DNA of 64,000 bases from the NCBI GenBank assembly GCA_963921275.4, contig OZ001293.3, positions 1,472,001 to 1,536,000 of the forward strand, in the 5' to 3' direction. This document shows, one piece after another, positions 33,991 to 54,230 of the stretch. The position numbers were made by a program, and so were the translations under genes. Below the pieces are notes generated by a model. The model saw nothing but the letters and a program-made list of their open reading frames with translations. It was not told the DNA's origin and searched no databases. Origin of the DNA: an uncultured Hormoscilla sp. (GTDB lineage Bacteria > Cyanobacteriota > Cyanobacteriia > Cyanobacteriales > Desertifilaceae). Position 1 is the first letter of the stretch. Every line of letters begins with the position of its first letter.

Positions 33991-34315
33991 TGGGGGCAGA
34001 GGGACTTGAACCCTCACGACTTTTAAGGCCAACGGATTTTCATCCTCCCGCAGCTTTCGCTACTGCCATCACCGGCTTTGAGAATTGGACCCTCCCTTTA
34101 CCCTCGACTTGACGTTAGGGTAGCTCCCGTCGGGCCTCTGCACCTTCCGATTTTGTCATCATTTGTCACAGGACAACTGTTTCGGCTTGGCTCAGGATTG
34201 CCTTGTCTGTTACCAGATTTAGGTTTCCCTGAATTTGAGAGCTTCCACTTGGCCGATTTCTCCACCAAGGCTCAGTTTTCTAAGTCCGTAGCGTCTACCA
34301 TTCCGCCATGCCCCC
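33991..34315 (-). tRNA. trnL: tRNA-Leu(UAA), intron-containing (exons 34282-34315 and 33991-34040)
   Basis: GGGGGCATGGCGGAATGGTAGACGCTACGGACTT|intron|AAAATCCGTTGGCC...GAGGGTTCAAGTCCCTCTGCCCCCA. Confidence 0.96.
34041..34281 (-). ncRNA. Group I self-splicing intron in the trnL(UAA) anticodon
   Basis: AATTCAGGGAAACCTAAA, GGCAATCCTGAGCCAA and GGTGCAGAGGCCCGACGG core motifs; terminal G; 241 nt, no ORF. Confidence 0.95.
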
Positions 34316-39126: not shown

Positions 39127-40515
39127 TTAAAATTCCACACTCAAAGGGGCACGGGGGAAAGGAATCACATCTCGAATATTACTCATTCCCGTCATCAACT
39201 GCACCAAGCGTTCAAACCCCAAACCAAACCCTGCATGAGGAACTGTTCCAAAGCGACGTAAGTCCAGATACCACCATAACTCTTCCGTACTCATTCCCTG
39301 AGCTTCGATCCGTCCCTCCAGCACCTCCAAACGTTCTTCCCGCTGCGCGCCCCCAATGATTTCCCCAATATTCGGAGCCAAAACATCCATCGCTGCCACT
39401 GTCTTTTCATCATCGTTCAAGCGCATGTAAAATGCTTTGATCTCTACTGGGTAGTCAGTGACGATCGCCGGCTTTTTGAACAGGTCTTCTGCCAAATAGC
39501 GCTCGTGTTCTGACTGGAGATCCACACCCCAGCGGACCGGATACTCAAACTTCTTGTCCGCTTTCTCCAAGAGGACGATCGCATCAGTATAGGTCAGCCG
39601 TGCAAATTCATTATTGATAATATTATCAGCCCTGGCCAGCACAGCATCATCAATCCGCTGATTGAAGAACTCCATATCCTCCGGACAACGATCCAGCACG
39701 TACTCAAACACATACTTGAGGAAATCTTCAGCCAACTGCATATTCCCTTCTAGGTCGCAAAAGGCCATTTCTGGCTCAATCATCCAAAACTCGGCCAAAT
39801 GGCGGGAAGTGTTGGAATTCTCGGCCCGAAAAGTCGGACCAAAGGTATAGACATCCCGGAAGGCCATCGCCATAATTTCCGCTTCCAACTGTCCGCTAAC
39901 AGTCAAATAGGCGGGTTTGCCAAAAAAGTCCTGACTGTAATCAACCTCTCGATCGTCTGTCAGGGGCACGTCCTGCAAATTAAAATTAGTGATCGTAAAT
40001 AACTCCCCCGCCCCTTCACAATCACTAGCAGTGATAATGGGGGTGTGAACCCAGAGGAAACCCCGTTCTTGAAAGAATTGGTGGATAGCAGCAGCAGTAG
40101 CATTCCGCACCCGGAAAACTGCCCCCAAGGTATTCGTGCGCGATCGCAAATGCCCGATCGTGCGCAAAAACTCAAAAGAATGGCGCTTCTTCTGCAAAGG
40201 ATAGGACTCGGAAGCAACGCCTAAAACCGTCACCGCAGTGGCCTTCAACTCAATGCGCTGTCCCTTACCCGGAGACTCCACCAGAGTGCCACTCACCTCC
40301 ACAGAGGCCCCCGTATTCACCTGTTTGAGCAGATCCTCATAATTAGGCAAATCTGCATTCAGCACCACTTGCAGGTTAGCTAAGAACGAGCCATCATTCA
40401 CCTCAATAAAAGCAAAACCCTTAGATGAGCGCTTCGTGCGTACCCAGCCCTTAATCGTCACCGGTTCTGAGGGCTGACCCTGCCGTAAAATTTCCGCAAT
40501 CCGTCGAGTTACCAT
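39127..40515 (-). CDS. asnS: Asparagine--tRNA ligase
   Basis: [36 protein letters not shown]. Confidence 0.97.
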
Positions 40516-40533
40516 ATTTCCATTCCCAACAAT

Positions 40534-40872
40534 TCATCGTCCGATCCACCAGTGTAATATCCAGCCGAGGACAAGACCCAAGCCCCCAAACCGCACCGCC
40601 TGCCAAAAAGGTTCCTGGAGGCGGATCCAGGAAAACAAACGACTTTCCAACTCCACTTCCAGAACCTCCAACTGCTGTTTGACCTCCCGTAATTCCTGCT
40701 GCAACTCCTCCAAGCGCCGCTTCAGGGCCCCCTGTCGCCCTTGGCCCTGGCGCACTTGGCGGTACCGTTCCCTCAGATCTCCCAGCTCTCGCTCGGCATC
40801 AGCGAGAGCTTCTTCAAATTCCTGGTTAGGATCTAGTGGAGAGGATCCAGACGGTTCTTCTGATGACTGCAT
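40534..40872 (-). CDS. Conserved coiled-coil protein with C-terminal TM segment
   Basis: LESRLFSW...EPFWQAVRFGGLG. The upstream part of the ORF-track call lies in IS sequence. Confidence 0.75.
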   Translation of the reverse strand: MQSSEEPSGSSPLDPNQEFEEALADAERELGDLRERYRQVRQGQGRQGALKRRLEELQQELREVKQQLEVLEVELESRLFSWIRLQEPFWQAVRFGGLGLVLGWILHWWIGR

Positions 40873-40892
40873 GAGCAAGATAGAGTAATATA

Positions 40893-42358
40893 ACTTAAGT
40901 TGCGACCTATAAAAATTGAACACAAAAAGCTATGATAAAGAGAATTAATTTTAACTCGAACCCTTTGGATGTAACAGCAGGACTTAGGAAACAAATTAGT
41001 TATTCGACTAAAGCATGTTTCTACTTGTTTTCTAGTTACGTTCTGTACATATTCAACCCGCGTTCTTTTTACGCCAAGGTTTGAACATTATATTCATTGA
41101 CTCGTAAATCTTCTAATTGATAATTGTTATAAATTTTGTCTCCATAAACTTTTGATGGCAAATCAAAGCAATTGGAGAATTTTCGCATCATTACAACTAC
41201 CAGGAGCAAAATAAAATTCTATTGGGTACATCTCAGTTAGGCGATGAGTAATTATACTTAGTGCTTGTCTCCCTCAAAACGGTACATAATTTAGGCACTG
41301 TTGACCACCCTTGACCCATGAACTCCCAAAAGCAGGCTGAACTCCAGCAACATCTTGACGCGATTGCCGCGATTCTCTACCAGGAAGCCGACCCCACTGA
41401 ACTCACCACCCTTGAAGGCATTGAGAAAAACGTTCGTGCGCTTGCCCAAGAACACGTCTGGCCTCAACTAGGAATTTTTTTATCAACACGGCGACTTCCC
41501 GCCGCACCGGAAAACAGCGCTCTGGTCGGGTTGAGTCCCTGGTGAAACAAATTGGGTTAAGGGTGAAATTACCGGGGGCACAATGGCGAGCCGAGAATGT
41601 GCCGATTTTTCGGGCCGTCCGCGGACCGTAGGTGTTGAAGCATCGCTGTGCCTACCTGAATGGCGCATTAGTTGCCTAATCAGACTCAGTAAATCCACTT
41701 GTGCTGAGTAAATATACTCATCGCCTAACTGAGATGCACCCATTCTATTGGTTTACCAGTTTTGTTGACTAACATATGAACTCTCAATAAAAATAACGTT
41801 TTTTGCTGGCGATATATCCTCTATATTCTTTTTCTGTATAAATTTTACATCGATCGTGTTGTCACATCCTGGCACAGGGAAACTATCGATAATATATTCT
41901 TGACCCGGATTTAGCGAATGATTGAGCCATTGCTTGAAATAAACTCCCATACAATTGTTTCATCAATCTTATGTTTTCGACGATTAAACCTACTTTTACT
42001 TAACAGATTTTTGATCTAGTTATGTTCTGCCATAAATTGACGAGCTCTATCGCCCTCCCAAAAAATAAGCAGCAACTAATCCTACTGTCATCACCTCCGC
42101 ATTATTCATTTTTACTTGTGGATCTTCTTTGATATTGAGTGCTTTTAGCAGTTCATCGCCAAGAACAAAAATTGTTATAATCATATTTTCCATAATCTAC
42201 CGCAATCAACTGTTATTTTAGTACATTATAACCTATAAACATGGATGGCTACTGATAGCATAAAAATAATATATTTCTGTATCCTACCATCCTACCAAAA
42301 ATATCGGAAATCTCTAAGTGGGTAATCCATTTTTTTTTTAATAGGTAGCAACTTGAGT
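40893..42358 (-). mobile_element. Degenerate IS982-family copy carrying a nested ISKra4 derivative
   Basis: TIRs acttaagttgcgacct / aggtagcaacttgagt; TAATATA duplication (40886-40892, 42359-42365); transposase broken by frameshifts. Confidence 0.88.
41224..41741 (+). mobile_element. Internally deleted ISKra4-family element (518 bp)
   Basis: 27-bp TIR ggg(t)[a/g]catctcagttaggcgatgagta; 8-bp TSD attctatt; ORF 41318 (AIAAILYQE...LEGIEKNVR...GIFLS) resembles the cyanobacterial ISKra4 transposase N-terminus. Confidence 0.82.
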
Positions 42359-42729
42359 TAATATATAGAAGCAAACAAATCTATCGGCTATTAAACCAAC
42401 AATTTTACCTGGCACTAGGAGTTGCGACTAAATGCCCAAAAACTTACACATCTCTCATATTTGGGGGAATTATCTCCTGCGAGCGAGCCATAAGGCGGTA
42501 TCAAAATCATCTCGCTCGTTCCGTATTATTAAGCCTAGCAGACGCTCGTCTTACTTGAGAGCGGCAAATGAGCGCAAGTCCACTTGCTTTTTGTGAGGCA
42601 AGTCCACTAAGCTAGAAAAAAGCAGTGGATGGCTAGCCCTGGCTGCTAACTATACGCGCTCGCTGGCGTTACGCCACGAGCGGGAGCTAGCTGCGGCCTT
42701 CCGTGTCGAAAGATGCGGATGTTATACTA

Positions 42730-43563
<834 letters not shown>

Positions 43564-43607
43564 TGCACCTATCTAGTTGTTAGATTAGTGAGGGTTAAAC
43601 GCAGCAC

Positions 43608-43913
43608 ATGCTCAACCAGACCGCAACAACTCCCGAGAGTCCCCAAATCAATTCCGGCACCAAAGCCAGTCAGCAACTGAGTACCATTGAACTCGCCCAA
43701 GCTCTGGCCCAGCGGCTGACCATCACACCGGACAAATGGCACCGGCTCAAGTCTAACCGTCCAGCTCGGGCCAGGGAGCAAGCAGCCGCAGCCCTGGTAT
43801 TTCTCCTTAAGGATCGACCCGAGGAAGCTCTTGCTAGACTCCAACAAGCAACCGGTTGGCTAGACCACTCAGTCTCAGCACCACCTTGTCCTGGCCACGG
43901 ATCGAGTAAATAG
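43608..43913 (+). CDS. DUF6439-like conserved cyanobacterial protein
   Basis: ELAQALAQRL.I...WHRLK.NR..RA.EQ, GWLD.S.SAPPCP.HG; usual neighbour of pmgA. Confidence 0.78.
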   Translation: MLNQTATTPESPQINSGTKASQQLSTIELAQALAQRLTITPDKWHRLKSNRPARAREQAAAALVFLLKDRPEEALARLQQATGWLDHSVSAPPCPGHGSSK

Positions 43914-44006
43914 TTAGTTGCTCCGGACGGGCGGATAGCCTGTCCGGAGCTTGTCAATTGACTATAGTCAATTGACAATTGTCAGCTGATTTAAGTAATA
44001 ATAAAA

Positions 44007-44438
44007 TCAGCAATCTATCAATTGCTTGCAGAGTTTCAACTCCCTGCCTTCATTATCCCACTGCACCCGATCGAATATTTGGTGTATAATAAAAATTCCC
44101 CGACCGCATTCAGAATCGTGCTCGGGGAGTAAGTTGACAGTCTCCGGTTCAAAAAAACAATCAGTCTGATGTCCACAACCCTGGTCTGAGATTACCCACC
44201 AATAGTGATTTCCCACCACTCTGAAGCGAACCGAGACCTTTTTACTGGAGTCAAGTTTGTTCCCATGCTTAGCTGCATTGACCAAAGCTTCTTGTAGTCC
44301 CAGTCGGAGTTCCGAGTGCCATTGGTCTGGAACTTTTGCTAATAACAAATCCAGGACAGGACAAAGATAGAGAGTTGAGGGAAAACTAATCGTGCTCCAT
44401 TTGCTGCGCCCTACGGAACGCTCTGAGATAGCAATCAC
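44007..44438 (-). CDS. pmgA: Anti-sigma-factor-like HATPase_c protein PmgA
   Basis: SFPSTLYLCPVLDLLL, LGLQEALVNAAKHGN, DQG, GRG. Confidence 0.82.
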   Translation of the reverse strand: MIAISERSVGRSKWSTISFPSTLYLCPVLDLLLAKVPDQWHSELRLGLQEALVNAAKHGNKLDSSKKVSVRFRVVGNHYWWVISDQGCGHQTDCFFEPETVNLLPEHDSECGRGIFIIHQIFDRVQWDNEGRELKLCKQLIDC

Positions 44439-44896
44439 GGCTGAAAAAACCCTTAGCTTTTAATAGGATAGACAGAAGTAGGCATAACCTGGAAATAGAT
44501 TTATTCATGGTCATGCTGTACTGAAACTTGGGTCAGTTAACCAAATTATTGATAACCTGATGGATAAGTTGCTAGAACAGATTTTTAGCTTCACAGGATT
44601 TTCACAAAATCCTTACTTCATCGAGCTATAAATCTGTAACCTACTGCCCACTAATTTACATTATATCCAAAAAATTGCTTCATTACACACCTGAGTGAGA
44701 ATACCATGCCCCCAACTGGCATGGTATTCCCACTAGACCCATCGGACTGCTATACTAGAGATCCCGCTGCTGTATCACTTGACAAGCATGAGATCCTATA
44801 CGCTAAACTAGCCTACAAAACAAAAAATACATAATTCAAGAAAAATAGTTACAATTAAATAGCCTTATATTACCCAGTCGGTTTTAACCGACTTTA

Positions 44897-45769
44897 GGGT
44901 GTGTCATCAATCAAATTGCTTGACAGAAGTAGATGGATACGGTATGGAGTCCTTATCCAGCAATAACAATCAAGAGGGCATGATATGAGACGCTATGGCT
45001 TGCGAGACGACCAGTGGGAACGGATCGAACACCTTTTACCTGGTAAAGAGGGTGACCCAGGCGCTACAGCCAAGAACAATAGATTATTCGTGTTCTGCCG
45101 TATTATATCGATATCGTGCTGGCATTCCCTGGCGGGATTTACCGGAGTGTTTTGGGGATTTTCGGGTTGTTCATACCCGCCATACCCGTTGGTCTGAAAA
45201 GGGAGTTTGGAAGCAGGTATTCGATGTCTTGGCCTCAGACGCCGATAACGAATACGCCGCGATTGATGCCACCATCCTGCGTGCCCATCAACGAGCGTGC
45301 GGGTGCAAAAAAAAACACCCTCAGATACGTGCGAAACCCAAGCCATAGGCCGTAGTAAAGGGGGACTATCGACAAAGATTCATGCCACTTGCGATTGCCC
45401 AAGGCAATCCCACAGGATTTCATCTTACCCCTGGCCAAGCCCACGACGGGAAAGGCGCTGACGTGCTATTGGATAAAATCGGTGAGATTGGCGCGCTGCT
45501 TGCAGATAAAGCCTATGATGCGGAACAACGTGTGCTCGAGCGCCTGAAAGAGGCGGATTGAATGGCTGTCATTCCTCCAAAAAGTAACCGCACAGAACAC
45601 AGAGAAGACGATGAAGAAATGTACAAGTGGCGGCATCTAATTGAAAATCTATTCCAAAAACTCAAGCAATACAGGGCTCTGGCGACACGCTACGATAAAA
45701 CGGCTCGCAATTTCTTGGGTGCCATCTACCTCGCGGCAGCTGTAATATGGCTTAATTGATGACACGCCC
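44897..45769 (+). mobile_element. IS5 family (IS427 group) element, transposase pseudogene
   Basis: TIR gggtgtgtcatcaa / ttgatgacacgccc with TA flanks; [39 protein letters not shown]...ATRYDK; extra frameshifts and TGA at 45558-45560. Confidence 0.9.
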
Positions 45770-46055
45770 TAGCTATTAGCAGGGGGTTTGAACCCCCTGC
45801 GGGCTGACAACGAAGCCAGAAAATTACAGGAAGTCAAAGTGTAGCACTCTTTTTTCAAAATGGTATAACTTATGAAGAGCGCGAGGGCGAACCACTGCAC
45901 GAGCCCTAGTATATACTGCGCGCGGTCAGGACTTGCGTTTTTCGCACGCCCCCAACTGAATTGGTCCAAACCCTTTCCCTGTCAAGGGTTGAGGCGAAAA
46001 TTTTCCTCCTGGAAAAAAGCTCAATTCGTTCCCGTGCCGAGTATATCGGAAGTCG

Positions 46056-46492
46056 AAACTGTGAGTAGGTGCCGGTGACAAAAGTGTGCTCGCGCCTCAT
46101 TGTACCGGCAGTCTATACGCAAGCGGATGTATCAGCTAAGGGGCGTGAGCCCCGTTTCAGAACTGGCCAAAAAAGCGAGTGTCTTATGGCCACTTTGATT
46201 ATCGGTTTAGAGGCAATAGTTCACAAATTTTGCAGGTATCAGAACACCTAAAGAGTCACTAAACTGCGAGTAGGTGTTGGTGATATCGGAGCGCTCGGGA
46301 CTATTACACTAGCAGTTGATACGCAAGTGGACGTATCAGCTAAGGGGCGATCGCCCTTGCTTCAGAACCGGTCAAACAAGTATTATGGCCACTTTGAGCA
46401 CCGGTTTATAGGCGACAGTTCACAAATTTTGTAGGTATCAGAACACCTAAAAAGTTACCGAACTGCGAGTAGGTGCCGGTGAGACTAGAGCG
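46056..46492 (+). repeat. Array of about 200-bp structured non-coding direct repeats (units start 46056, 46261, 46460 partial)
   Basis: Shared blocks aactg[t/c]gagtaggtg, gtatcagctaaggggcg, ttatggccactttga, agttcacaaattttg and aggtatcagaacacctaaa; compensatory changes in hairpins. Confidence 0.85.
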
Positions 46493-46530
46493 CGGGTGCG
46501 GTCAAAAGTAGTTGCAATAGGAGAATCATC

Positions 46531-46552
46531 ATGTTAAGTTCAACATTATTTA
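46531..46552 (+). pseudogene. 5' stub of an unknown gene (MLSSTLF...) cut by IS982
   Basis: AGGAG at 46519-46523, ATG at 46531, IS end at 46553. Confidence 0.5.
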
Positions 46553-47502
46553 ACTCAAGTTGCTACCTATTAAAAAAAAAATGGATTACCCACTTAGAGA
46601 TTTCCGATATTTGTGTTTTTTGGTAGTCACAGAAATATATTATTTTTATGCTATCAGTAGCCATCCCTGTTTATAGGTTATAATGTACTAAAATAACAGT
46701 TGATTGCGGTAGATTATGGAAAATATGATTATAACAATTTTTGTTCTTGGCGATGAACTGCTAAAAGCACTCAATATCAAAGAAGATCCACAAGTAAAAA
46801 TGAATAATGCGGAGGTGATGACAGTAGGATTAGTTGCTGCTTATTTTTTGGGAGGGCGATAGAGATCGTCAATTTATAGCAGAACATAACTAGATCAAAA
46901 ATCTGTTAAGTAAGAGTAGGTTTAATCGTCGAAAACATAAGATTGATGAAACAATTGTATGGGAGTTTATTTCAAGCAATGGCTCAATCATTCGCTAACT
47001 CCGGGTCAAGAATATATTATCGATAGTTTCCCTGTGCCAGGATGTGACAACATTAGGATCGATAGATGTAAAATTTATACAGAAGAAGAATATAGAGGAT
47101 ATATCGCCAGCAAAAAACGTTATTTTTATTGAGAGTTCATATGTTAGTCAACAAAACTGGTAAACCAATAGAATTTTATTTTGCTCCTGGTAGTTGTAAT
47201 GATGCGAAAATTCTCCAATTGCTTTGATTTGCCATCAAAAGTTTATGGAGACAAAATTTATAACAATTATCAATTAGAAGATTTACTAAAAGAGTCAATG
47301 AATATAATGTTCAAACATTTGCGTAAAAAGAACGCGGGTTCAATATGTACAGAACGTAACTAGAAAACAAGTAGAAACATGCTTTAGTCGAATAACTAAT
47401 TTGTTTCCTAAGTCCTGCTGTTACATCCAAAGGGTTCGAGTTAAAATTAATTCTCTTTATCATAGCTTTTTGTGTTCAATTTTTATAGGTCGCAACTTAA
47501 GT
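46553..47502 (+). mobile_element. Degenerate IS982-family copy without target duplication
   Basis: TIRs actcaagttgctacct / aggtcgcaacttaagt; same lesions as the 40893 copy; flanks ttattta vs taaaata. Confidence 0.88.
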
Positions 47503-47513
47503 TAAAATAAATT

Positions 47514-48728
47514 ATGATTTCTACTTCTGTTATCCCCCCTGCGATCGATCTCTCCGGGGTGAGATTAGAGATTAGAGCCTTACAGCCACAGCTGGTAGAA
47601 TGGCGCAAAAGGTTGCATCAGCGACCGGAACGGGGCTTTAAGGAGCAGTTGACAGCCCAGTTGATTTGCCAAAAGTTAACTTCATGGGGCATCGAGCATC
47701 TTCCAGGCGTAGCTGAGACTGGAGTGGTAGCCACGATCCCCGGATCGAAACCAGGACCCGTGCTCGCCATTAGAGCAGATATGGATGCACTGCCTATCCA
47801 AGAATTGAACGATGTGCCCTATCGATCGCAGCATGATGGAGTCATGCATGCTTGCGGTCATGACGGACATACGGCGATCGCCCTAGGGGTAGCCAAGTAT
47901 CTGGCCTCCCATCAGCAGGACTTCGCGGGCACAGTAAAGATCCTCTTCCAACCGGCTGAGGAAGGACCGGGAGGTGCTAAACCGATGATTGCAGCGGGAG
48001 TGTTGGAAAATCCTGACGTAGATGCCATTATCGGCTTGCACCTGTGGAATAATCTGCCCTTGGGCAGATTAGGCGTGCGCAGTGGCCCATTGATGGCCGC
48101 AGTGGAGATGTTTGAGGCTCACATTTTGGGCAAAGGGGGACATGGTGCTATGCCCCATCAAACCATTGATGCGATCGTGGTCAGCGCCCAAATTGTCAAT
48201 GCCCTACAGACGATTGTGGCCCGGAACGTCGATCCAATCAAGTCGGCGGTCGTCACCATCGGAGAACTCTATGCTGGCACGGCCAAAAACATCATTGCCG
48301 ATACCGCCCGGATGAAGGGCACGGTGCGGTATTTCGATCCGGCCTTCAAGGGATATTTCGGGCAGCGAGTCGAGCAAATTATTGCCGGTGTCTGCCAGAG
48401 TCACGGAGCCAGTTATAAATTAAACTACTGGAGTTTTTATCCACCCCTGATCAATGATGCTGGCATGGCTGAATTAGTCCGTTCGGTAGCTTTAGATGTA
48501 GTGGAGACACCAGCAGGAGTAGTCCCAGAATGCCAGACAATGGGGGGAGAGGACATGGCCTTTTTCCTACAACAGGTGCCAGGGTGCTATTTCTTCCTGG
48601 GTTCTGCCAACCCCGACAAAGGTTTAGCCTATCCCCATCACCATCCCCGCTTTGACTTTGATGAGATCGTCTTGCAGGTGGGAGTAGAAATGTTCGTCCG
48701 CTGCGTAGAAAAGTTTTGTCAGACGTAG
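47514..48728 (+). CDS. M20 family amidohydrolase (N-acyl-L-amino acid amidohydrolase-like)
   Basis: RADMDALP, MHACGHDGH, FQPAEE, GGHGA, GEDMAF, HHHPRF. Confidence 0.93.
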   Translation: MISTSVIPPAIDLSGVRLEIRALQPQLVEWRKRLHQRPERGFKEQLTAQLICQKLTSWGIEHLPGVAETGVVATIPGSKPGPVLAIRADMDALPIQELNDVPYRSQHDGVMHACGHDGHTAIALGVAKYLASHQQDFAGTVKILFQPAEEGPGGAKPMIAAGVLENPDVDAIIGLHLWNNLPLGRLGVRSGPLMAAVEMFEAHILGKGGHGAMPHQTIDAIVVSAQIVNALQTIVARNVDPIKSAVVTIGELYAGTAKNIIADTARMKGTVRYFDPAFKGYFGQRVEQIIAGVCQSHGASYKLNYWSFYPPLINDAGMAELVRSVALDVVETPAGVVPECQTMGGEDMAFFLQQVPGCYFFLGSANPDKGLAYPHHHPRFDFDEIVLQVGVEMFVRCVEKFCQT

Positions 48729-48751
48729 GACGGGCGGATCGCCTGTCCGGA

Positions 48752-48845
48752 GGTAGTCTGTCAGCCCACTCAATGGCCACAATGCCCAAGGGAAACTCTA
48801 AACCCTCCCAGTAGGTTTCTGGGTGCAAGGCAGCTACTTCTGCCG
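48752..48845 (-). pseudogene. tsaE: Short internal fragment of tRNA threonylcarbamoyl ATPase TsaE
   Basis: EVAALHPETYWEGLEFPLGIVAIEWADRLP resembles the C-terminal part of cyanobacterial TsaE. Confidence 0.55.
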
Positions 48846-48849
48846 GTTA

Positions 48850-49060
48850 TAACCGGTACAAAATTCTTTTGGTTTTGAGTAAATTGATACATAAGCGCCG
48901 TCATTGTCCCATATTCTCAGTCCCATGTCCGGTTCTAAGGAGGCTATAGTCTTCTTTAAACCTTATATCTAAGACCCAATGGAGACTGTTTTCAACCCCC
49001 CAATGAGAGCGAATCGCTTTCGCCAAAACCGTAGCATCTGCTAGTGGTAAACTTTCCTGC
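48850..49060 (-). mobile_element. ISAs1 family transposase C-terminal fragment
   Basis: AIRSHWGVENSLHWVLDIRFKED motif followed by an in-frame stop. Confidence 0.8.
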
Positions 49061-49133
49061 AGGAGTTCTGACTCTGGGGAAAAAGAGCGATCGGGCAATA
49101 TGCAATTAACAATATGCAATTAACAATATGCTA

Positions 49134-51450
49134 TTAGCTATTCAAAACAATGTCGATCGACCGATCGATCAAATCAACAGCTTCTGACTCATAGTGATAG
49201 GTTTTCGTCTTAAACTTCATCTCCTCCATTTGTTCCAGTTGTTTAGAAGGGAGATGTTTGTATTTATCTTGATACAGCTGCAAGGTCAGGCTACCGATTT
49301 TCGTCCTCTGCCCTGTGGTTGCTTGAATGCCCCGTTCTTTGAGTCGCTTGGCGACGGAAACGGTGGCTGTCGTTCCACTCTTTACTGTACGCTTTTTCTT
49401 CAAGCTGTCCAATGTTTGAGTCAGTTGCTCGACTGTTGAGATCAATTGCGTTTGTAACTGAGTATATCGTCTTGCGGGTTTGTCTGTAGCCACCGCAATC
49501 TCTAAAGCTTTGGTCTGTCCCACTGCCATAAATGTACTACTAGCGCGAGTCATGGTAGTATAGAGTAACTGGCGAGTCAGCATGTAGCGATCGCAGAGCA
49601 GCAGGGGCATAATCACATGGGTAAATTCAGAACCCTGGGACTTGTGGCAGGTCAGACAGAATGAATGCATAATCTGTTCCAGTTCGGACTGCTTGTAGTG
49701 AACGATCGCGCCCTCCTCAAATTCCACTGTTACCAGTTGATTTTTCGAGTCAACTGACACAACGATGCCAGTTTCTCCATTCATCACGGCGGGTGCGGTG
49801 TCGTAGCGATTTTTGAGTTGAATCACGCGGTCATTCACGCGGTAGACGACCTCATTCCACTCCACCTCGGCACTGTCGGGCAGTTTAGGATTAAAGATGG
49901 GCTGAAGCAGAATATTCAGATTGCGAACGCCACAGACACCCTTCTTTTGAGGTGCTAATACCATCAGAGATTTAGTTAAATCGACATCCTCTGCTTTCAT
50001 GGCCACTGCCAATTCAAAAATTGCCTGGGCTGTGGCTTCCGGTGTCGGGGTTTCCCACATGGCGCAATCTCCCACATCCATCCATTGTTTTGCCTGCTTA
50101 AACTCGTGCAGTTTTGGTATTTTACCTCTGTTAACATCTTCTGCTGCATAGATAATCGGGCTTTCATGTCGCTGTCGATGGATCTTCTGCAATCGGGTTG
50201 TGGGCACCATTTCCGAGATCTGCAAATCTCGCAGCACCATCCCGGGCCCGACACTGGGTAATTGGTCCGAGTCTCCCACTAGCAAGACTTTTGCTCTTGC
50301 GGGTAAGGCTTTCAGCAGGGAGTTAAACAGGAATATATCCACCATTGAGAATTCATCAACAATTAGCCAGTCGATATCCAGCGGATTCTTATCATTATAA
50401 AGAAAAGCTTGCCCTGCTCCCTGCCACTGTAGTAAGCGATGAATGGTGTATGCTTCTGTATCCGTGGCGTTTTTCATGCGGCTGGCGGCCTTGCCTGTGG
50501 GGGCGGCGAGAGCTACTTTCAAGTCCTTGAATTCTAACCACTGCACTAAAATCTTCAGTATATAGGTTTTGCCTCGTCCCGGTCCCCCAGTCAGGATGCT
50601 GAAGGCATGTCTTTCTGCCATAAATAAGGCTTGACGTTGTTCCTCGCTCAGATTGTACCGCTCGTCCTACTGCACTCTCATAACGAAGCAAACACTCTTC
50701 TAGGTCTTCTGTTGGTTGAGTAGGTTGCCCGAGAAACCAGATCGCCTGCAACGCTACTCTCAGTTCGATGCGGTAGACCCCTCTCAGGTAGATACTCCCC
50801 GATAATAATCCTGCTGCTAAAGTCTGGTTCTGTTTTCCCTTGCCGATCGCCTCTTGCACTGCCGATATGCTTGGGGTATGCTGGGGAAGCTCTAGCAGCT
50901 TTATTGCACGATTAATCAGTTCCGTTTCTGGCAGGAAGCAATGACCTTGACTTTGGGCATCTTTGAATACTTGAACAAGCCCTTGGAGATACCTGCTCTC
51001 GCTATCGGGCTCTATGCCTAAGGAGCGGGCGATCGCGTCAGCAGTCTTAAACCCAACACCATCGACTTCATCGATTAACCTGTAGGGATCGCTTTCAAGT
51101 ACATTCATGGTATCCTGCTGGTAATGCTCGCAAATCTTCATGGTTAACCCCAATGAAGTTCCATGTCCTAAGAGCAGGGCCACAGCAGGGTAGGCCGGGT
51201 TTTCTTTACTCTTGGACCAAGCTTCGGTAATGTCGCCGATGCGGTGCCGATCTAGTCCGGGGATTTGATAGAGTTGTTCTGGAGAGTTCTCTAGTACAGA
51301 GAGGGTAGCAGTGCCGAACTGGGCGACTAGCTTAGATGCCGTCTTTTCGCCAATCCCTCGAAACAGTCCACTGGAAAGATATTGCTCGATTTCGGCATTG
51401 GTGAGTGGGGGAAGTTGATTAGCCTGATTTGATTCACTCTCTTTTAGCAT
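49134..51450 (-). pseudogene. recD2: RecD2-like ATP-dependent DNA helicase, frameshifted at about 50656-50670
   Basis: HhH motifs GIGEKTA and GVGFKTAD, GGPGRGKT, APTGKAA, DEFSM, GDSDQLPSVG, HKSQGSE; two overlapping ORFs. Confidence 0.85.
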
Positions 51451-51798
51451 AGAAGTCCTTGGTTTGGCTTTTGTTCGAGTTTAAGAAAGAATTTATACTC
51501 GCTGCTGATCGTTAGCCCCTTACCAGCAGCCCAGAAACCAGGTTAAAGGGAAAAACCTGGTTTCTTAATTCTTGCGTTGAGATGATCCTAGGGCGATCGC
51601 TTATGATATGTCTTAAGCTAGAACCTCGGTACTGATACCGGGTAACTCTGGTCAGATCTTTGATATCTCGTTAATAGCTGCACTCCGAGACCCGGTTTCT
51701 AGCTTCTACTTGACCGATGCCCTAGCAACCCCACGATCTGACCGCTGACCACTGACCACTGACCACATCATATCTCAGAGGAGACCATCTGTAAGTTT

Positions 51799-54230
51799 AT
51801 GCTTCATATCAGACCTGTGACTGTGATCCTATCGGCAAGCATTCTAGCATTGATGGCTGGATGTGCCCAAGAGCAACCTCCAGCGACGGCACCGGATCGC
51901 CCGCCAGTCAGCAACGAAGATCCGATGTCTGAGGGGTTTTTGCGCCAGCGCAGCGGCTGCGCAGCCGCTAGCATCCCGAAGACATCGAAGGGGACTGTGA
52001 CAGAACTCACTGAACCGCAGATCCAGTTGAGTCTGGTGCCTCCAGATAATCCCGACCCTGCTACTAATGCCCAAATTCAACAATACCTGAACGGGTTGGC
52101 AGCCAAAGGACATCTCTCCCAACGCCAAGGAGTCTGGATCCAATCTGGCAATACCCTGCTGGCAAATCACCAAGGCACAGTGCCTCTGCCTGCTGCTTCC
52201 GTGACTAAGGTGGCAACAACTCTGGCGGCCCTAGAAACTTTTGGCCCCGATCATCGGTTTGTGACTTTAATTAGCGCTACCGGACCAATATATGAAGGGG
52301 TGCTACAAGGTGACTTGGTGGTCAAGGGGGGAGAAGACCCGTTTTTTGTCTGGGAAGAGGCGATCGCCCTAGGCAACCTATTAAATCAGCTGGGCATCAG
52401 GCGGGTAGCGGGTAATCTGATAATTGTGGGCAAATTTTATATGAACTTTGAGGCTAACCCACTCACAGCTGGCAAACTATTACAGCAAGGGTTAAATTAT
52501 CAGACTTGGTCAGCTCAAGTAGAAACCCAATATCGCACCTTGCCCCCAGGCATCCCTCGACCCCAGGTAATTATTAACGGTTTCGTGTGGTTTGCTCTGG
52601 GAAATCCTCCCAATGCCCAGACTATGGTGCGCCATTATTCTTTTCCCCTGGCGGAACTGCTCAAGAAGATGAATCGCTATAGTAACTCAAGTTGCGACCT
52701 ATAAAAATTGGATACAAAAAGCTATGATAAAGAGAATTATTTTCAACTCTAATCCCTTAGATGTAACAGCATGAATTGACTTGGGAAACAAATTGGTGAT
52801 TCGACTAAAACAGGTTTCAACTTGTTTTCTTGTTACTTTTTGTATATATTCAAAACAAGAATATTCTTTTCTTTTTGAGTTCTTTTTTCGCAAAGGTTTT
52901 AACATTATACTTGACGACTCTTTTAGTAAATCCTCTAATTGATAATCATTATAAGCTTTATCTCCATAAACTATTGAATTTGATGGTAAGTCAAAGCCAA
53001 AAGATTGCAAAACTTTAACATCATTATAACTACCAGGATCTAGATAAAATTCTATTGGCTTTCCATTTTTGTTTACCAACATATGAACTCTTAATCCATA
53101 AAAATAACGTTTTTTACTGGCAATATACCCTCGATATTCTTCCTTGTTATAAATTTGGCATCTATCAATCCTAATATTATCACATACTGGCACCGGGAAA
53201 CTATCAAGAATATATTCTTGACCCGGATTGAGCTCTTTAAATGTTTGAGCTATAACTTGGAAGAAAAACATCCAAATTGGTTCCTCAATATTGTGTAATC
53301 GACGATTGAACCTACTTTTACTTAACAGATTTTTTATATACTTGTGTTGGACCATAAATTGACAAGAGCGATCGTGGTGTCCTCCGAAAAAATATGCAGC
53401 AACTAATCCGACTGTCATCACTTCGGCATTGTTCATTTTTACTTGTGGATCTTCTTTTATATTTAACGCTTTTAGTAGCTCGTCACAAAGAACAAAAATT
53501 GTTGTAATCATATCTTCCATCATCTACATCCCCCAGCAATTAACTATTATTTTAGTACATTATAACCTATAAACAGCCAACCCGCCGTCTAGCACAAAAA
53601 AAATATAATTTTGTATCAAAAGCTACGAAATATTCCAAATATCTGTAAAGTATAAGTGGGTAATTCATATTTTTTTTAATAGGTCGCAACTTAGGTTATA
53701 GTAATAACTTGATGGCTGATATGCTAGCTAATACTGTGGGCGGTGCTCGGGTAGTGGCCCTCAAGGCTGCCGATCGCGCTGGGGTGCCCAGGGGCGAAAT
53801 TCAACTCGTTAATGGTTCTGGTTTGGGTGTCACTAATCAGATCTCTCCCCGGGCTGCTGTGGCCTTGTTTCTGGCGATCGAGCGCTATCTCCAGCCCTAT
53901 AATATGACTGTAGCCGATCTGTTCGCGATCGTCGGACAAGATGAAGGCATATTAGAGACTCGCCCCAGGATCCCTCAATTAGCAGTGGTCAAATCAGGCA
54001 GTTTGAATAATGTCAGTACCTTAGCAGGTGCCTTACCAACTCGGGAGCAAGAAACTGTCTGGTTTGTAATCATGAATTTTGGCAATGATTTAGTCGGATT
54101 TCGTGCCGAACAAGAAGCTTTATTACAGACTTTTGTCAAGCATTGGGGAGCAGTTTCATCTCTTCCTCCAGAGTTAAAACCATTACCCCAAAGGAAGAGC
54201 AAAACTTCTCGCAGTGAAATTGCTAACTAG
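51799..54230 (+). pseudogene. dacB: D-alanyl-D-alanine carboxypeptidase (peptidase S13, PBP4) lipoprotein split by IS982
   Basis: Lipobox MAGC, ASVTK (SxxK), MNRYS|NNLMAD (SxN interrupted), KSG motif in the 53709-54230 half. Confidence 0.88.
52685..53696 (-). mobile_element. IS982 family element with intact transposase (CDS 52699-53523)
   Basis: 1012 bp, TIRs, 7-bp TSD TATAGTA, DDE motifs (LDSFP, GDKAY, VET). Confidence 0.95.

Follow-up and report, generated by a model that had tools for sequence, protein, structure and literature searches.

BOX, REP and MITE families usually comprise tens to hundreds of copies. The boxB module is about 45 nt long, REPs are high-copy sequences of 20-40 nt, and MITEs are characterized by terminal inverted repeats (TIR), target-site duplications (TSD) and the existence of an insertion sequence (IS) with matching ends. 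BOX elements, as presented in PMC3049150, are A-B(n)-C composites of 67-637 bp, featuring variable boxB tandems and predicted RNA stem-loops, which cluster with other repeats and for which both TIR and TSD are reported. REP/BIME sequences and MITEs, according to PMC3049150 and PMC3184786, are non-coding, strand-biased, intergenic hairpin repeats and hot spots for IS insertion.

The array described here lies in the window, i.e. the whole stretch of 64,000 nucleotides of Hormoscilla DNA that was analyzed. Like BOX from Streptococcus pneumoniae, it is an intergenic modular composite, with one module in variable-number tandem and predicted RNA stem-loops; it clusters with repeats and IS elements, and its module content varies between loci and strains. 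Unlike BOX, to which it bears no sequence relation, it has a unit of 200 nt and three module types, without fixed, TIR-bearing terminal modules; no TIR or TSD was found, and the copy number is low (3 loci per genome, against more than 100 for BOX). With REP/BIME clusters and MITEs, such as the cyanobacterial Nezha, it shares the non-coding nature, the hairpins, the strand bias, the intergenic location and the vicinity of IS elements. Unlike in MITEs, there is just one inverted repeat close to the ends of the unit, CACCT(A)/(T)AGGTG, 5-6 nt long and internal, at the unit junction; no TSD is recognizable at the copy boundaries examined, the core copies are six, at three loci, and no resident IS shares the unit ends: BLAST of a unit against the genome returned the three loci and chance matches of 15-27 nt.

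ToxI repeats, about 36 nt long (about 34-45 nt for antitoxin pseudoknot units in general), are not known to occur without a ToxN-family endoRNase gene following them in the operon. The array is similar to them, being composed of tandem, structured, non-coding direct repeats, but its period of 199-205 nt is far longer, as already pointed out in the preliminary description of the locus, and no toxin gene was found by Pfam and PADLOC. In tandem arrays of sibling sRNAs (NsiR1 in Nostocales, LhrC in Listeria) every single repeat carries a separate promoter and terminator; diverged structured copies, arranged head-to-tail in a narrow taxon, are a common trait, but neither signal was detected in single units here. 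The reverse-transcriptase (RT) gene found next to RT-associated ncRNAs was not detected by Pfam among the neighbouring ORFs, and contiguous 200-nt units, 80% alike and free of spacers, do not make a CRISPR array.

Units and hairpins of the array

The array consists of three units, the last one partial:

46056..46260, + strand: repeat unit 1, type A, 205 nt, defined by Tandem Repeats Finder, nhmmer and pairing counts
46261..46459, + strand: repeat unit 2, 199 nt, 79.8% identity to unit 1
46460..46494, + strand: repeat unit 3, first ~35 nt only, with the conserved box AACTGCGAGTAGGTGCCGGTGA; broken by a short dispersed repeat

The array is real, with a period of 199-205 nt, 2.1 copies at 46056-46494 and units 78-80% alike. 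Tandem Repeats Finder reported 46056-46482 (period 199, 2.1 copies, 78% matches, 3% indels), and nhmmer placed the units at 46056-46259 and 46261-46458, with a partial third at 46461-46494: together they bear out the unit starts at 46056, 46261 and 46460 originally given, and the truncation of the third unit. The head-to-tail junctions are exact.

A shared coding frame, judged unlikely from the beginning, is argued against by the indels between units 1 and 2 (-1, +1 and -6 nt), by the distribution of their 40 substitutions among codon phases (13/17/10, with no periodicity) and by the presence of stops in every frame, on both strands, of each unit. Heterogeneity of substitutions between the two units was not significant (permutation p = 0.19). 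A decayed protein-coding repeat, the pseudogene of a repeat-domain protein, might have left the 60-codon ORF found in unit 1 (46069-46251), but this frame is closed in unit 2 and in other copies, has no PADLOC match, and coexists with single-nucleotide indels, while the greatest variability is in the hairpin loops: such an origin is extremely improbable. The units are non-coding, hairpin-forming, strand-biased repeats.

In unit 1, a stem, P1, is formed by the pairing of 46070-46077 with 46103-46110; the other hairpins are atac/gtat, GGGGC-GTGA-GCCCC, a CCGG-armed one around ATGGCCACTTTGA, and AGGTAT..ACCT. Units 1 and 2 are ~20% diverged, yet every hairpin is kept, and the pairings initially quoted proved real: in P1 (tgccggtg/taccggca versus tgttggtg/cactagca) pairing amounts to 96.3% across 10 copies, and 3 pairs have changed on both sides; the acaccta..taggtg stem, said to span the unit junction, is found as cacct/aggtg, where pairing reaches 84.4% and one pair is doubly changed. 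P1 contains a G·U pair that 7 of the 10 copies retain, otherwise diverged ones included. When a local hairpin model is applied, 90.8% of the cells are paired, against 32-47% when the partners are slid. Double-changed pairs are 2-3 in number, a count which shuffles reached in 22/500, 57/500 and 20/500 cases, the related sequences being only 7-10. Two incompatible pairing schemes, one local (a:b, c:d) and one long-range (b:c), fit the pairing data about equally, because all arms are CCGG-centred.

Compensatory and wobble changes in the hairpins fit only the + strand. The minimum free energy (MFE) of the whole array is -185 kcal/mol on the + strand versus -152 on the - strand (z of -4.6 and -2.6, respectively), and in 7/7 type-A copies the + strand MFE is below that of the - strand. 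Single units reach modest z-scores, from -1.4 to -3.2, with no consistent advantage over the - strand. No promoter-like or terminator-like site per unit was detected on the + strand.

The absence of a recognizable riboswitch, stated in the preliminary description, agrees with the Rfam search, where 45000-48000 gave no match at E<=10; the rest of the window gave group I and group II intron matches only, and five related loci nothing relevant. The closest vestige of a retroelement, domain V of a group II intron, is located at 42730-42807 on the other strand. A resemblance to cobalamin riboswitches, which we presumed from GGTGCCGGTGAAAAT and GCCACT, was rejected, since the Rfam model gives no match.

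A strain-specific insert of insertion-sequence debris

The features surrounding the array are the following:

44777..47501, no strand assigned: 2.7-kb insert, between a HATPase_c_2 gene (44010-44438, - strand) and an M20 gene
44894..45772, + strand: IS5-family element with a broken transposase frame; 63 other genome BLAST matches over its span
45773..45875, + strand: composite dispersed repeat, with a ~33-nt promoter-like motif (TGTAGCA...TGGTATAAC) after a palindrome (cagggggtttgaaccccctg)
45911..45943, + strand: short dispersed repeat inside the supposed leader; four further genome copies
46493..46520, + strand: copy of a ~24-nt dispersed repeat (GGGTGCGGTCAAAAGTAGTTGCA); ~100 genome BLAST matches, thirteen copies aligned in register
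46531..46626, + strand: spurious 31-codon ORF (MLSSTLF...), consisting of the IS982 end past its first 5-7 codons
46550..47504, + strand: old, degenerate IS982-family copy, ~78% identical to ~1025-bp copies elsewhere; 89 other BLAST matches over its span
47514..48728, + strand: intact M20-family amidohydrolase gene (Pfam Peptidase_M20; TIGR01891), outside the repeat system

Around the array, the DNA is insertion-sequence debris peculiar to this strain. In all four sister genomes the orthologous region upstream of the M20 gene does not contain the array: 44777-47501 is therefore a strain-specific insert. It is composed of the IS5 element, small dispersed repeats, the array and the IS982 element, and stands in place of 92 bp of the intergenic region in its ancestral state; of this region, a short inverted piece survives at 44774-44799. 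BLAST of the upstream region from one sister genome (G004) aligns its positions 78-849 to 44000-44776 (90%), 942-1100 to 47502-47660 (94%) and, in inverted orientation, 873-898 to 44799-44774.

The IS5-family element is recognized by NCBIfam transpos_IS5_3, on two ORF pieces, and by Pfam DUF4096/DDE_Tnp_1; it sits within a copy of a dispersed palindromic repeat, found uninterrupted at C1:1963175. The segment from 45870 to 46055, formerly regarded as a leader, is a patchwork with at least two dispersed repeats (45837-45875 and 45911-45943), and not a dedicated leader: 45770-45815 has dozens of BLAST matches, and twelve further copies exist of the motif at 45837-45873.

Downstream of the array, a gene decapitated by an IS982 had been proposed. 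An IS982-family element without target duplication is indeed there: its flanks do not match each other, and NCBIfam transpos_IS982 recognizes ORF 46959-47129 as well as an intact relative (L023:4483-5199). The decapitated gene is not. The left end of the element, as defined by coverage, falls at 46545-46551, and the MLSSTLF ORF enters it after ~14-20 nt; what precedes is 5-7 codons, with no Pfam-type or PADLOC match for the ORF, and the AGGAG in front of it is the edge of the ~24-nt dispersed repeat. No gene remainder follows the IS982 element, where the intact M20 gene begins: its native ATG lies ten nt past the right end of the element (47504), and four sister genomes share this start, with orthologues that align from residue 1 onwards at 91-97% identity.

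Relatives and their gene context

Relatives of the array were found only in Hormoscilla, at 3 loci in this genome (G000) and, in four other genomes, at 1-2 loci each. A BLAST search of 61 genomes with one unit matched three of the four sister-genus genomes and none of the 56 from other genera. With a covariance model of the core, three loci totalling 6 core copies were detected in this genome (7.03 Mb), and copies also in G003; among 151 order-level genomes, just two weak extra-genus matches were obtained, both rejected as lying inside coding genes, which we take, from their translations, to be CobT-like and SQD1-like. A pattern scan of genome contigs gave 28 loci, 3 of which, from Hormoscilla, are real, the other 25 being chance matches in unrelated bacteria; of 34 loci from metagenome contigs, none was confirmed by the model. 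Plasmid and phage collections produced no match to the repeat, and none of the titles and abstracts of the Hormoscilla repeat literature deals with such repeats. To judge from these searches, the family is previously undescribed, Hormoscilla-restricted, low-copy and modular.

The family core, ~95 nt long, is composed of an AGGTAT..ATACCT hairpin, a ~20-nt spacer and P1, an 8-bp CCGG-centred stem with a variable loop, often a HIP1-like palindrome. The spacer ends in a box, AAAYTGCGAGTAGGTG (RNA: AAAYUGCGAGUAGGUG), nearly invariant in 14 copies, even in those otherwise diverged; in a target search, neither its reverse complement nor other conserved motifs were enriched elsewhere in the genome. 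Type A indicates the core plus optional further hairpins, in a ~200-nt unit; two further modules are B, a ttccaccagaac...gttctggtggaa hairpin, and C. Modules differ in combination, order and number at seven loci, with no common head or tail module, and truncation points differ between copies. Type-A tandems are present in the window and in G004, a type-B tandem at G004:C53 (period 96, 2.7 copies).

A stretch of 118 nt (46365-46482), covering the second half of unit 2 and the beginning of unit 3, shares 97% identity with a copy in another species (G004:C21), where the flanks are unrelated. In a contig from another sample, identity is complete over 46159-46256 and is then lost, ~4 nt off the unit boundary; among the contigs partly covering the stretch, the four that were aligned feature fragments only, and none of the listed sequencing runs in which it occurs is recorded as RNA. 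At locus b, the arrays of G000 and G002, two different species, are 97.7% identical over 747 nt, ungapped, compared to 84.5% for the flank and 97.8% for the M20 gene; the copy that stands alone at locus c is conserved to no greater degree than its flanks. Six iteron-like repeats, AGGTTGAT, come after the related locus at C1:4295549-4295713.

No neighbour gene is shared across the seven related loci in five genomes. IS elements are found within ~300 bp in the window (IS5, IS982), at G004:C53 (IS982), at G004:C21 (ISL3) and at locus b of G000, where a TnpB element is inserted right at the array end; IS982 also occupies the locus-b site in G004:C13. Neither a clean empty site nor a TSD is readable at this site or at the G001 SBP_bac_5 locus, where breakpoints are rearranged or IS982-occupied. 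At least one adjacent gene is co-oriented at 6 of the 6 independent loci, and read-through transcription is therefore possible; since co-orientation at all six has a probability of ~0.18 by chance, and is not significant, it was not used as evidence. Integron attC sites, group II intron fragments and centromeres were considered and rejected: neither an integrase nor a partition gene is linked, and the sequence is unrelated to the multicopy introns.

In the preliminary description, the succession of leader, RNA array and protein gene was likened to type III toxin-antitoxin (TA) or RT-associated (retron/DRT-like) loci, with the gene cut by IS982. The resemblance is one of superficial layout, tandem structured repeats followed by AGGAG and ATG, and it is countered by the nature of the ORF and of its AGGAG, by the size of the unit compared to ToxI, and by the absence of the array in the four sister genomes. 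ToxN/AbiQ-like toxins, RTs and defence genes were not detected by Pfam and PADLOC among the ORFs of 40000-52000 and of six related loci, nor was any RVT-type Pfam match obtained for 46 ORFs around the seven loci and for 12 more. The intact downstream gene whose identification had been suggested does not emerge from the related arrays either, as their downstream genes differ or are absent. Lack of a consistent downstream gene had been named beforehand as contrary to the proposal, and the gene-linked reading is therefore refuted, its residual probability being negligible. The array has no partner gene.

Origin and possible role of the repeats

The best explanation, to which we give a probability of roughly 45%, is that the array is a new, modular, low-copy hairpin repeat of the same general type as pneumococcal BOX elements or enterobacterial BIMEs; recombination would shuffle it, and it would fold in any transcript that carries it. 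Units would multiply in tandem, and loci would exchange them via unequal or homologous recombination; rearrangements mediated by IS982, IS5 or ISL3 may also move units, which do not appear to have a dedicated transposase, between loci. The effect would be passive: stable stem-loops in read-through transcripts could stabilise, process or attenuate RNA. The genus-limited spread, the module mosaics, the IS neighbours, the absence at the orthologous site and the array piece at G004:C21 are consistent with a modular repeat. A very low copy number, the lack of TIR, TSD and of a resident IS with the unit's ends are not, nor is the conservation of the locus-b array beside its diverged flank, above expectation for junk. 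The conserved box and the P1 G·U pair, moreover, look like sequence-specific function, and all hairpins are kept in spite of the divergence between units 1 and 2.

The latter features would be accommodated by a genus-specific family of structured ncRNAs, either sibling sRNAs or a cis-acting UTR element, an explanation clearly less probable, although a serious one. The core would then be the functional part, transcribed from the + strand and perhaps processed from arrays, and the single-stranded box a putative protein or RNA-target site. Compensatory and wobble changes limited to the + strand, the pairing of P1 with its double changes and its G·U, the lower + strand MFE of the array and of type-A copies, and the near invariance of the box argue for it, as would, were it significant, the co-orientation of adjacent genes; the identity of 97.7% over 747 nt between two species at locus b, with no indels and a flank at 84.5%, suggests selection on the core. 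A genuine RNA family is, on the other hand, hard to reconcile with units having no promoter-like or terminator-like site and modest z-scores, with marginal shuffle controls and two equivalent pairing schemes, with a solitary locus-c copy conserved no better than its surroundings, and with an inconsistent gene context, the absence from the orthologous site in sister genomes and the restriction to one genus. Somewhat less probable still, and thus doubtful, is the more specific proposal, based on sequence comparison, that the core might be a new Hormoscilla-specific functional RNA module, transcribed from the + strand, under selection and acting via the box: this would serve, e.g., as a protein sponge or a processing signal, arrays would raise its dosage, and the self-complementary CCGG arms would pair units into higher-order assemblies.

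Two explanations at the DNA level are to be weighed along with these. A single-stranded DNA element for an HUH-type enzyme (an IS200/IS605-like PATE, a RAYT substrate, a rolling-circle origin or an oriT mimic) would place subterminal hairpins around a conserved cleavage box and generate tandems by rolling-circle read-through. The strand-specific succession of hairpin, conserved ~16-nt single strand and hairpin is what it calls for, and exact head-to-tail junctions, the break at 46256 in another sample, so close to a unit boundary, and the TnpB element at the very end of the locus-b array point in the same direction; but the two hairpins are unlike each other, whereas IS608 ends resemble each other, no Y1/HUH gene is linked at any locus, in DNA the conserved G·U of P1 would become a G·T mismatch, the copies are few, and plasmids and phages give no match, so that the element is improbable. 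Even less credit is due to a double-stranded, protein-binding array (centromere-, iteron- or operator-like), resting on palindromic ACCGGT/CCGG sites. These are enriched: arrays totalling 2,752 nt contain CCGGT at 24 places, or 8.7 per kb compared with 0.97 genome-wide, ACCGGT reaches 5.1 per kb (against 0.34), and iteron-like repeats do follow one related locus. Yet in P1 of unit 2 both CCGG cores are lost (TTGG / CTAG) while the arms are still complementary, which fits a hairpin and not independent palindromes, and no partition or replication gene is linked, nor is there a plasmid match.

The chief value of these results is a correction: the picture of an RNA array coupled to a decapitated toxin or RT gene is a chance product of IS insertions, and the locus is therefore not worth pursuing as a new TA or retron-like system. 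What is left standing is a new family of modular hairpin repeats, limited to Hormoscilla, a genus with sponge symbionts among its members and with genomes laden with IS elements; the family is useful as a marker of rearrangement and recombination in these genomes. If the minority reading, that of a functional RNA, were true, the repeats would represent a structured RNA peculiar to this lineage, whose single-stranded box is conserved to an unusual degree.

Layout of the array and origin of the insert

Tandem Repeats Finder detects a single array (46056-46482) with a period of 199, 2.1 copies, 78% matches, 3% indels and a score of 517. Units were delimited by a profile built from the two full ones, which share 79.8% identity across 198 aligned columns: 29 of the 40 substitutions are transitions, the substitutions are not significantly clustered (p = 0.19), and the indels measure 1, 1 and 6 nt. 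The preliminary description of ~200-bp repeats without a shared coding frame is borne out. Since the substitutions are distributed by codon phase as 13/17/10, with no periodicity, stops occur in all six frames of both units, and the 60-codon ORF of unit 1 does not stay open in unit 2, the units are non-coding. No Rfam family matches 45000-48000 at E<=10, in line with the remark that no riboswitch was recognised.

Features of the array region, and the sole Rfam gathering-level hits in the whole window
34073-34291, - strand: group I intron (Rfam)
42730-42807, - strand: group II intron domain V (Rfam)
44870-44893 and 45773-45815: halves of a dispersed palindromic repeat
44894-45772: IS5-family element (NCBIfam), inserted into that repeat; 63 hits by other genomic copies
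45837-45873: promoter-like 33-nt dispersed motif; 12 further genome copies
46056-46259: repeat unit 1
46261-46458: repeat unit 2
46461-46494: repeat unit 3, partial
~46550-47504: IS982-family element (NCBIfam); 89 hits by other genomic copies

A gene decapitated by IS982 had been placed after the array; no such gene exists. The "MLSSTLF" ORF starts at 46531 and the IS end lies at ~46550, therefore just 5-7 codons precede it, and an intact 404-aa M20 amidohydrolase has its ATG 10 nt past the right end of IS982. Its orthologues in the four sister Hormoscilla genomes are 91-97% identical from residue 1, with a common start context. The AGGAG before the ORF lies at the margin of a dispersed repeat of ~24 nt, GGGTGCGGTCAAAAGTAGTTGCA, which has roughly 100 BLAST hits genome-wide and truncates unit 3. 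This repeat (46493-46520) reads GGGTG(C/T)GGTCAAAAGTAGTTGCA and recurs at ~100 other sites of the host genome, G000; some copies form inverted pairs ~60 nt apart, resembling the ends of tiny MITEs, as near C1:2421143.

In the four sister genomes the gap between the HATPase_c_2 and M20 genes consists of ~450 bp of ordinary intergenic DNA. Against one of them, G004, positions 44000-44776 align at 90% and 47502-47660 at 94%; because these sister alignments flank it, the 2.7 kb at 44777-47501 represent a genome-specific insertion or rearrangement. The array is not ancestral at the site upstream of M20. In the window, 92 bp of the G004 intergenic DNA are missing, save one 26-nt inverted piece (44774-44799), found at the left breakpoint of the insert. 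The insert is composed of the IS5 within the palindromic repeat, the 33-nt motif, another short dispersed repeat (4 other genome copies), and then the array, the 24-nt repeat and IS982. The palindromic composite repeat, gtcggttaaaaccgac ... cagggggtttgaaccccctg, has an uninterrupted copy at C1:1963175. The 33-nt motif, AATTGTAGCATTGTTTTTCCAAAATGGTATAAC-like, is followed by a different sequence in each copy, and looks like an extended -10 promoter on a dispersed repeat. The IS982 copy is ~78% identical to ~1025-bp copies elsewhere; its lack of a target duplication, as first described, is what involvement in recombination would produce.

Relatives and modular structure

Relatives were sought by unit BLAST and by a covariance model of the ~95-nt core. 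Six core copies are found in G000 (7.03 Mb), at three loci: the window, C1:3755808-3756358 (locus b) and C1:1551363-1551427 (locus c). The other four Hormoscilla genomes feature one or two loci each, and about 15 copies from the five related genomes were compared. Nothing real was found by unit BLAST in 56 genomes of other genera, by the covariance model in 146 further order-level genomes, by pattern scans of genome and metagenome contigs beyond Hormoscilla, or in plasmid and phage records; two weak covariance-model hits outside the genus, both inside coding sequences, were rejected.

Copies are cut at differing points. The commonest block, the core, runs from a small hairpin through a spacer to the box AAAYTGCGAGTAGGTG, which hardly varies among 14 copies, and on to P1, an 8-bp CCGG-centred stem. 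In relatives, these type-A units are interleaved with type B, a ~90-nt ttccaccagaac...gttctggtggaa hairpin, which G004:C53 carries as a tandem of period 96. The remaining module, type C (~230 nt), folds no more stably than expected (z +0.7). Both B and C are also low-copy, and CCGGT is ~9 times denser in arrays than in the genome. A 118-nt segment (46365-46482) is 97% identical to an array in G004:C21, while flanks and neighbouring unit halves differ, the kind of mosaic that recombining repeats typically show. In another sample, a contig (coded run X8) matches 46159-46256 exactly and continues into unrelated sequence; there, a different module follows this unit. Among the sequencing runs listed as containing the stretch, none is recorded as RNA.

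Some loci carry further sequences next to the modules. Six direct AGGT(T/C)GAT iteron-like repeats lie just downstream of a C + B block (G000 C1:4295549-4295713), within an iron-uptake cluster (Peripla_BP_2, TonB-dependent receptor, ExbB). In G003:C287 (L034 1620-1790), comparable AGGTTGAT/AGGTGGAT repeats come after a degenerate copy of the type-A core. At G004:C53 (L017, ~1893 onward) a group II intron (GTGCG start) directly follows a type-B hairpin, as if this were its target; its domain V hit (2740-2817) is weak, at 32.5 bits against a gathering score of 40.

Pairing potential

The stems originally quoted are real: P1 (tgccggtg...taccggca) is 96.3% paired over 10 copies from five genomes. 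Both sides change in three of its eight pairs, a count matched by 22/500 column shuffles, and a G·U pair persists at one position in 7 of the 10 copies. Its five substitutions in unit 2 are all pairing-neutral (C-G to U-A, two C to U opposite G, U to C opposite G), with wobble pairs compatible only with the + strand. The stem across the unit junction (CACCT/AGGTG; 84.4% paired, one double change) also exists, in competition with a local AGGTAT..ATACCT hairpin (85.7%).

A local five-hairpin model is 90.8% paired, versus 32-47% after sliding partners, with only 2 double changes, a number reached by 57/500 shuffles. RNAalifold favours another scheme (94.7% paired; reached by 20/500 shuffles), where the 5' arm of P1 has the CCGG arm of one hairpin as its partner; the two are not separable by the data, because every arm is built on self-complementary CCGG. 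The whole array folds at -185 kcal/mol on the + strand (z -4.64; 0/100 shuffles equally good) and at -152 kcal/mol (z -2.64) on the - strand; single type-A units have modest z-scores (-1.4 to -3.2), with lower energy on the + strand in 7/7 copies. The pairing potential is real and strand-biased. The pairings first described hold; covariation is not established as statistically firm.

Genomic context and nature of the family

A likeness to type III toxin-antitoxin or RT-associated loci had been proposed. Pfam analysis of 46 ORFs at seven loci and 12 at two others found no shared neighbour gene, and no toxin, RT, integrase or partition genes; the sole PADLOC find is a RecD2-type helicase 2.6 kb away. 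The latter (49137-51450, -), in two overlapping ORFs (49137-50621 and 50398-51450), is probably frameshifted; its neighbour at 48901-49119 may, from its translation, be an ISAs1-like fragment. Four array loci have an IS element within ~300 bp, the G004 locus-b site is taken up by an IS982, and no clean empty site is readable at the G001 SBP_bac_5 locus or the G004:C13 locus-b site. In a 570-aa frame at locus b (L027 8391-10100; C1:~3756391-3758100, -), a HemN/HemW-like radical-SAM N-terminus is joined to a TnpB RNA-guided nuclease: a TnpB element, absent from G002, probably inserted into a radical-SAM gene right at the array end. In G003:C287 (L137 2850-4220), two adjacent ORFs match halves of TcA_TcB_BD, the C-terminal domain of Tc-toxin TcA, a broken gene fragment adjoining a degenerate type-A core.

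Because they are restricted to the genus, mosaic, variably truncated, set in variable IS-rich contexts, absent from the orthologous site and devoid of a partner gene, the weight of evidence points to new modular hairpin repeats of the BOX/BIME kind; the analogy rests on PMC3049150. The main rival, a genuine structured ncRNA, stays alive because several observations are at odds with a typical selfish repeat: very low copy number, absent TIR and TSD, a single-stranded box that does not vary, a G·U pair kept across copies, and the conservation of locus b. There, G000 and G002 share 97.7% identity across 747 gapless nt of the array (A-core, C, B, A, B-tail), against 84.5%, with gaps, for the adjacent thioredoxin-TPR region and 97.8% for the M20 gene; either purifying selection or a recent exchange could account for this. 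At locus c, the conservation of the solitary half-copy does not exceed that of its surroundings. An ssDNA/HUH element, a dsDNA-binding array, a type III TA/RT system and a decayed protein are minor or contradicted alternatives. As BOX/BIME-like repeats, the units would grow in tandem and be exchanged by recombination, and may act passively as stem-loops in read-through transcripts.
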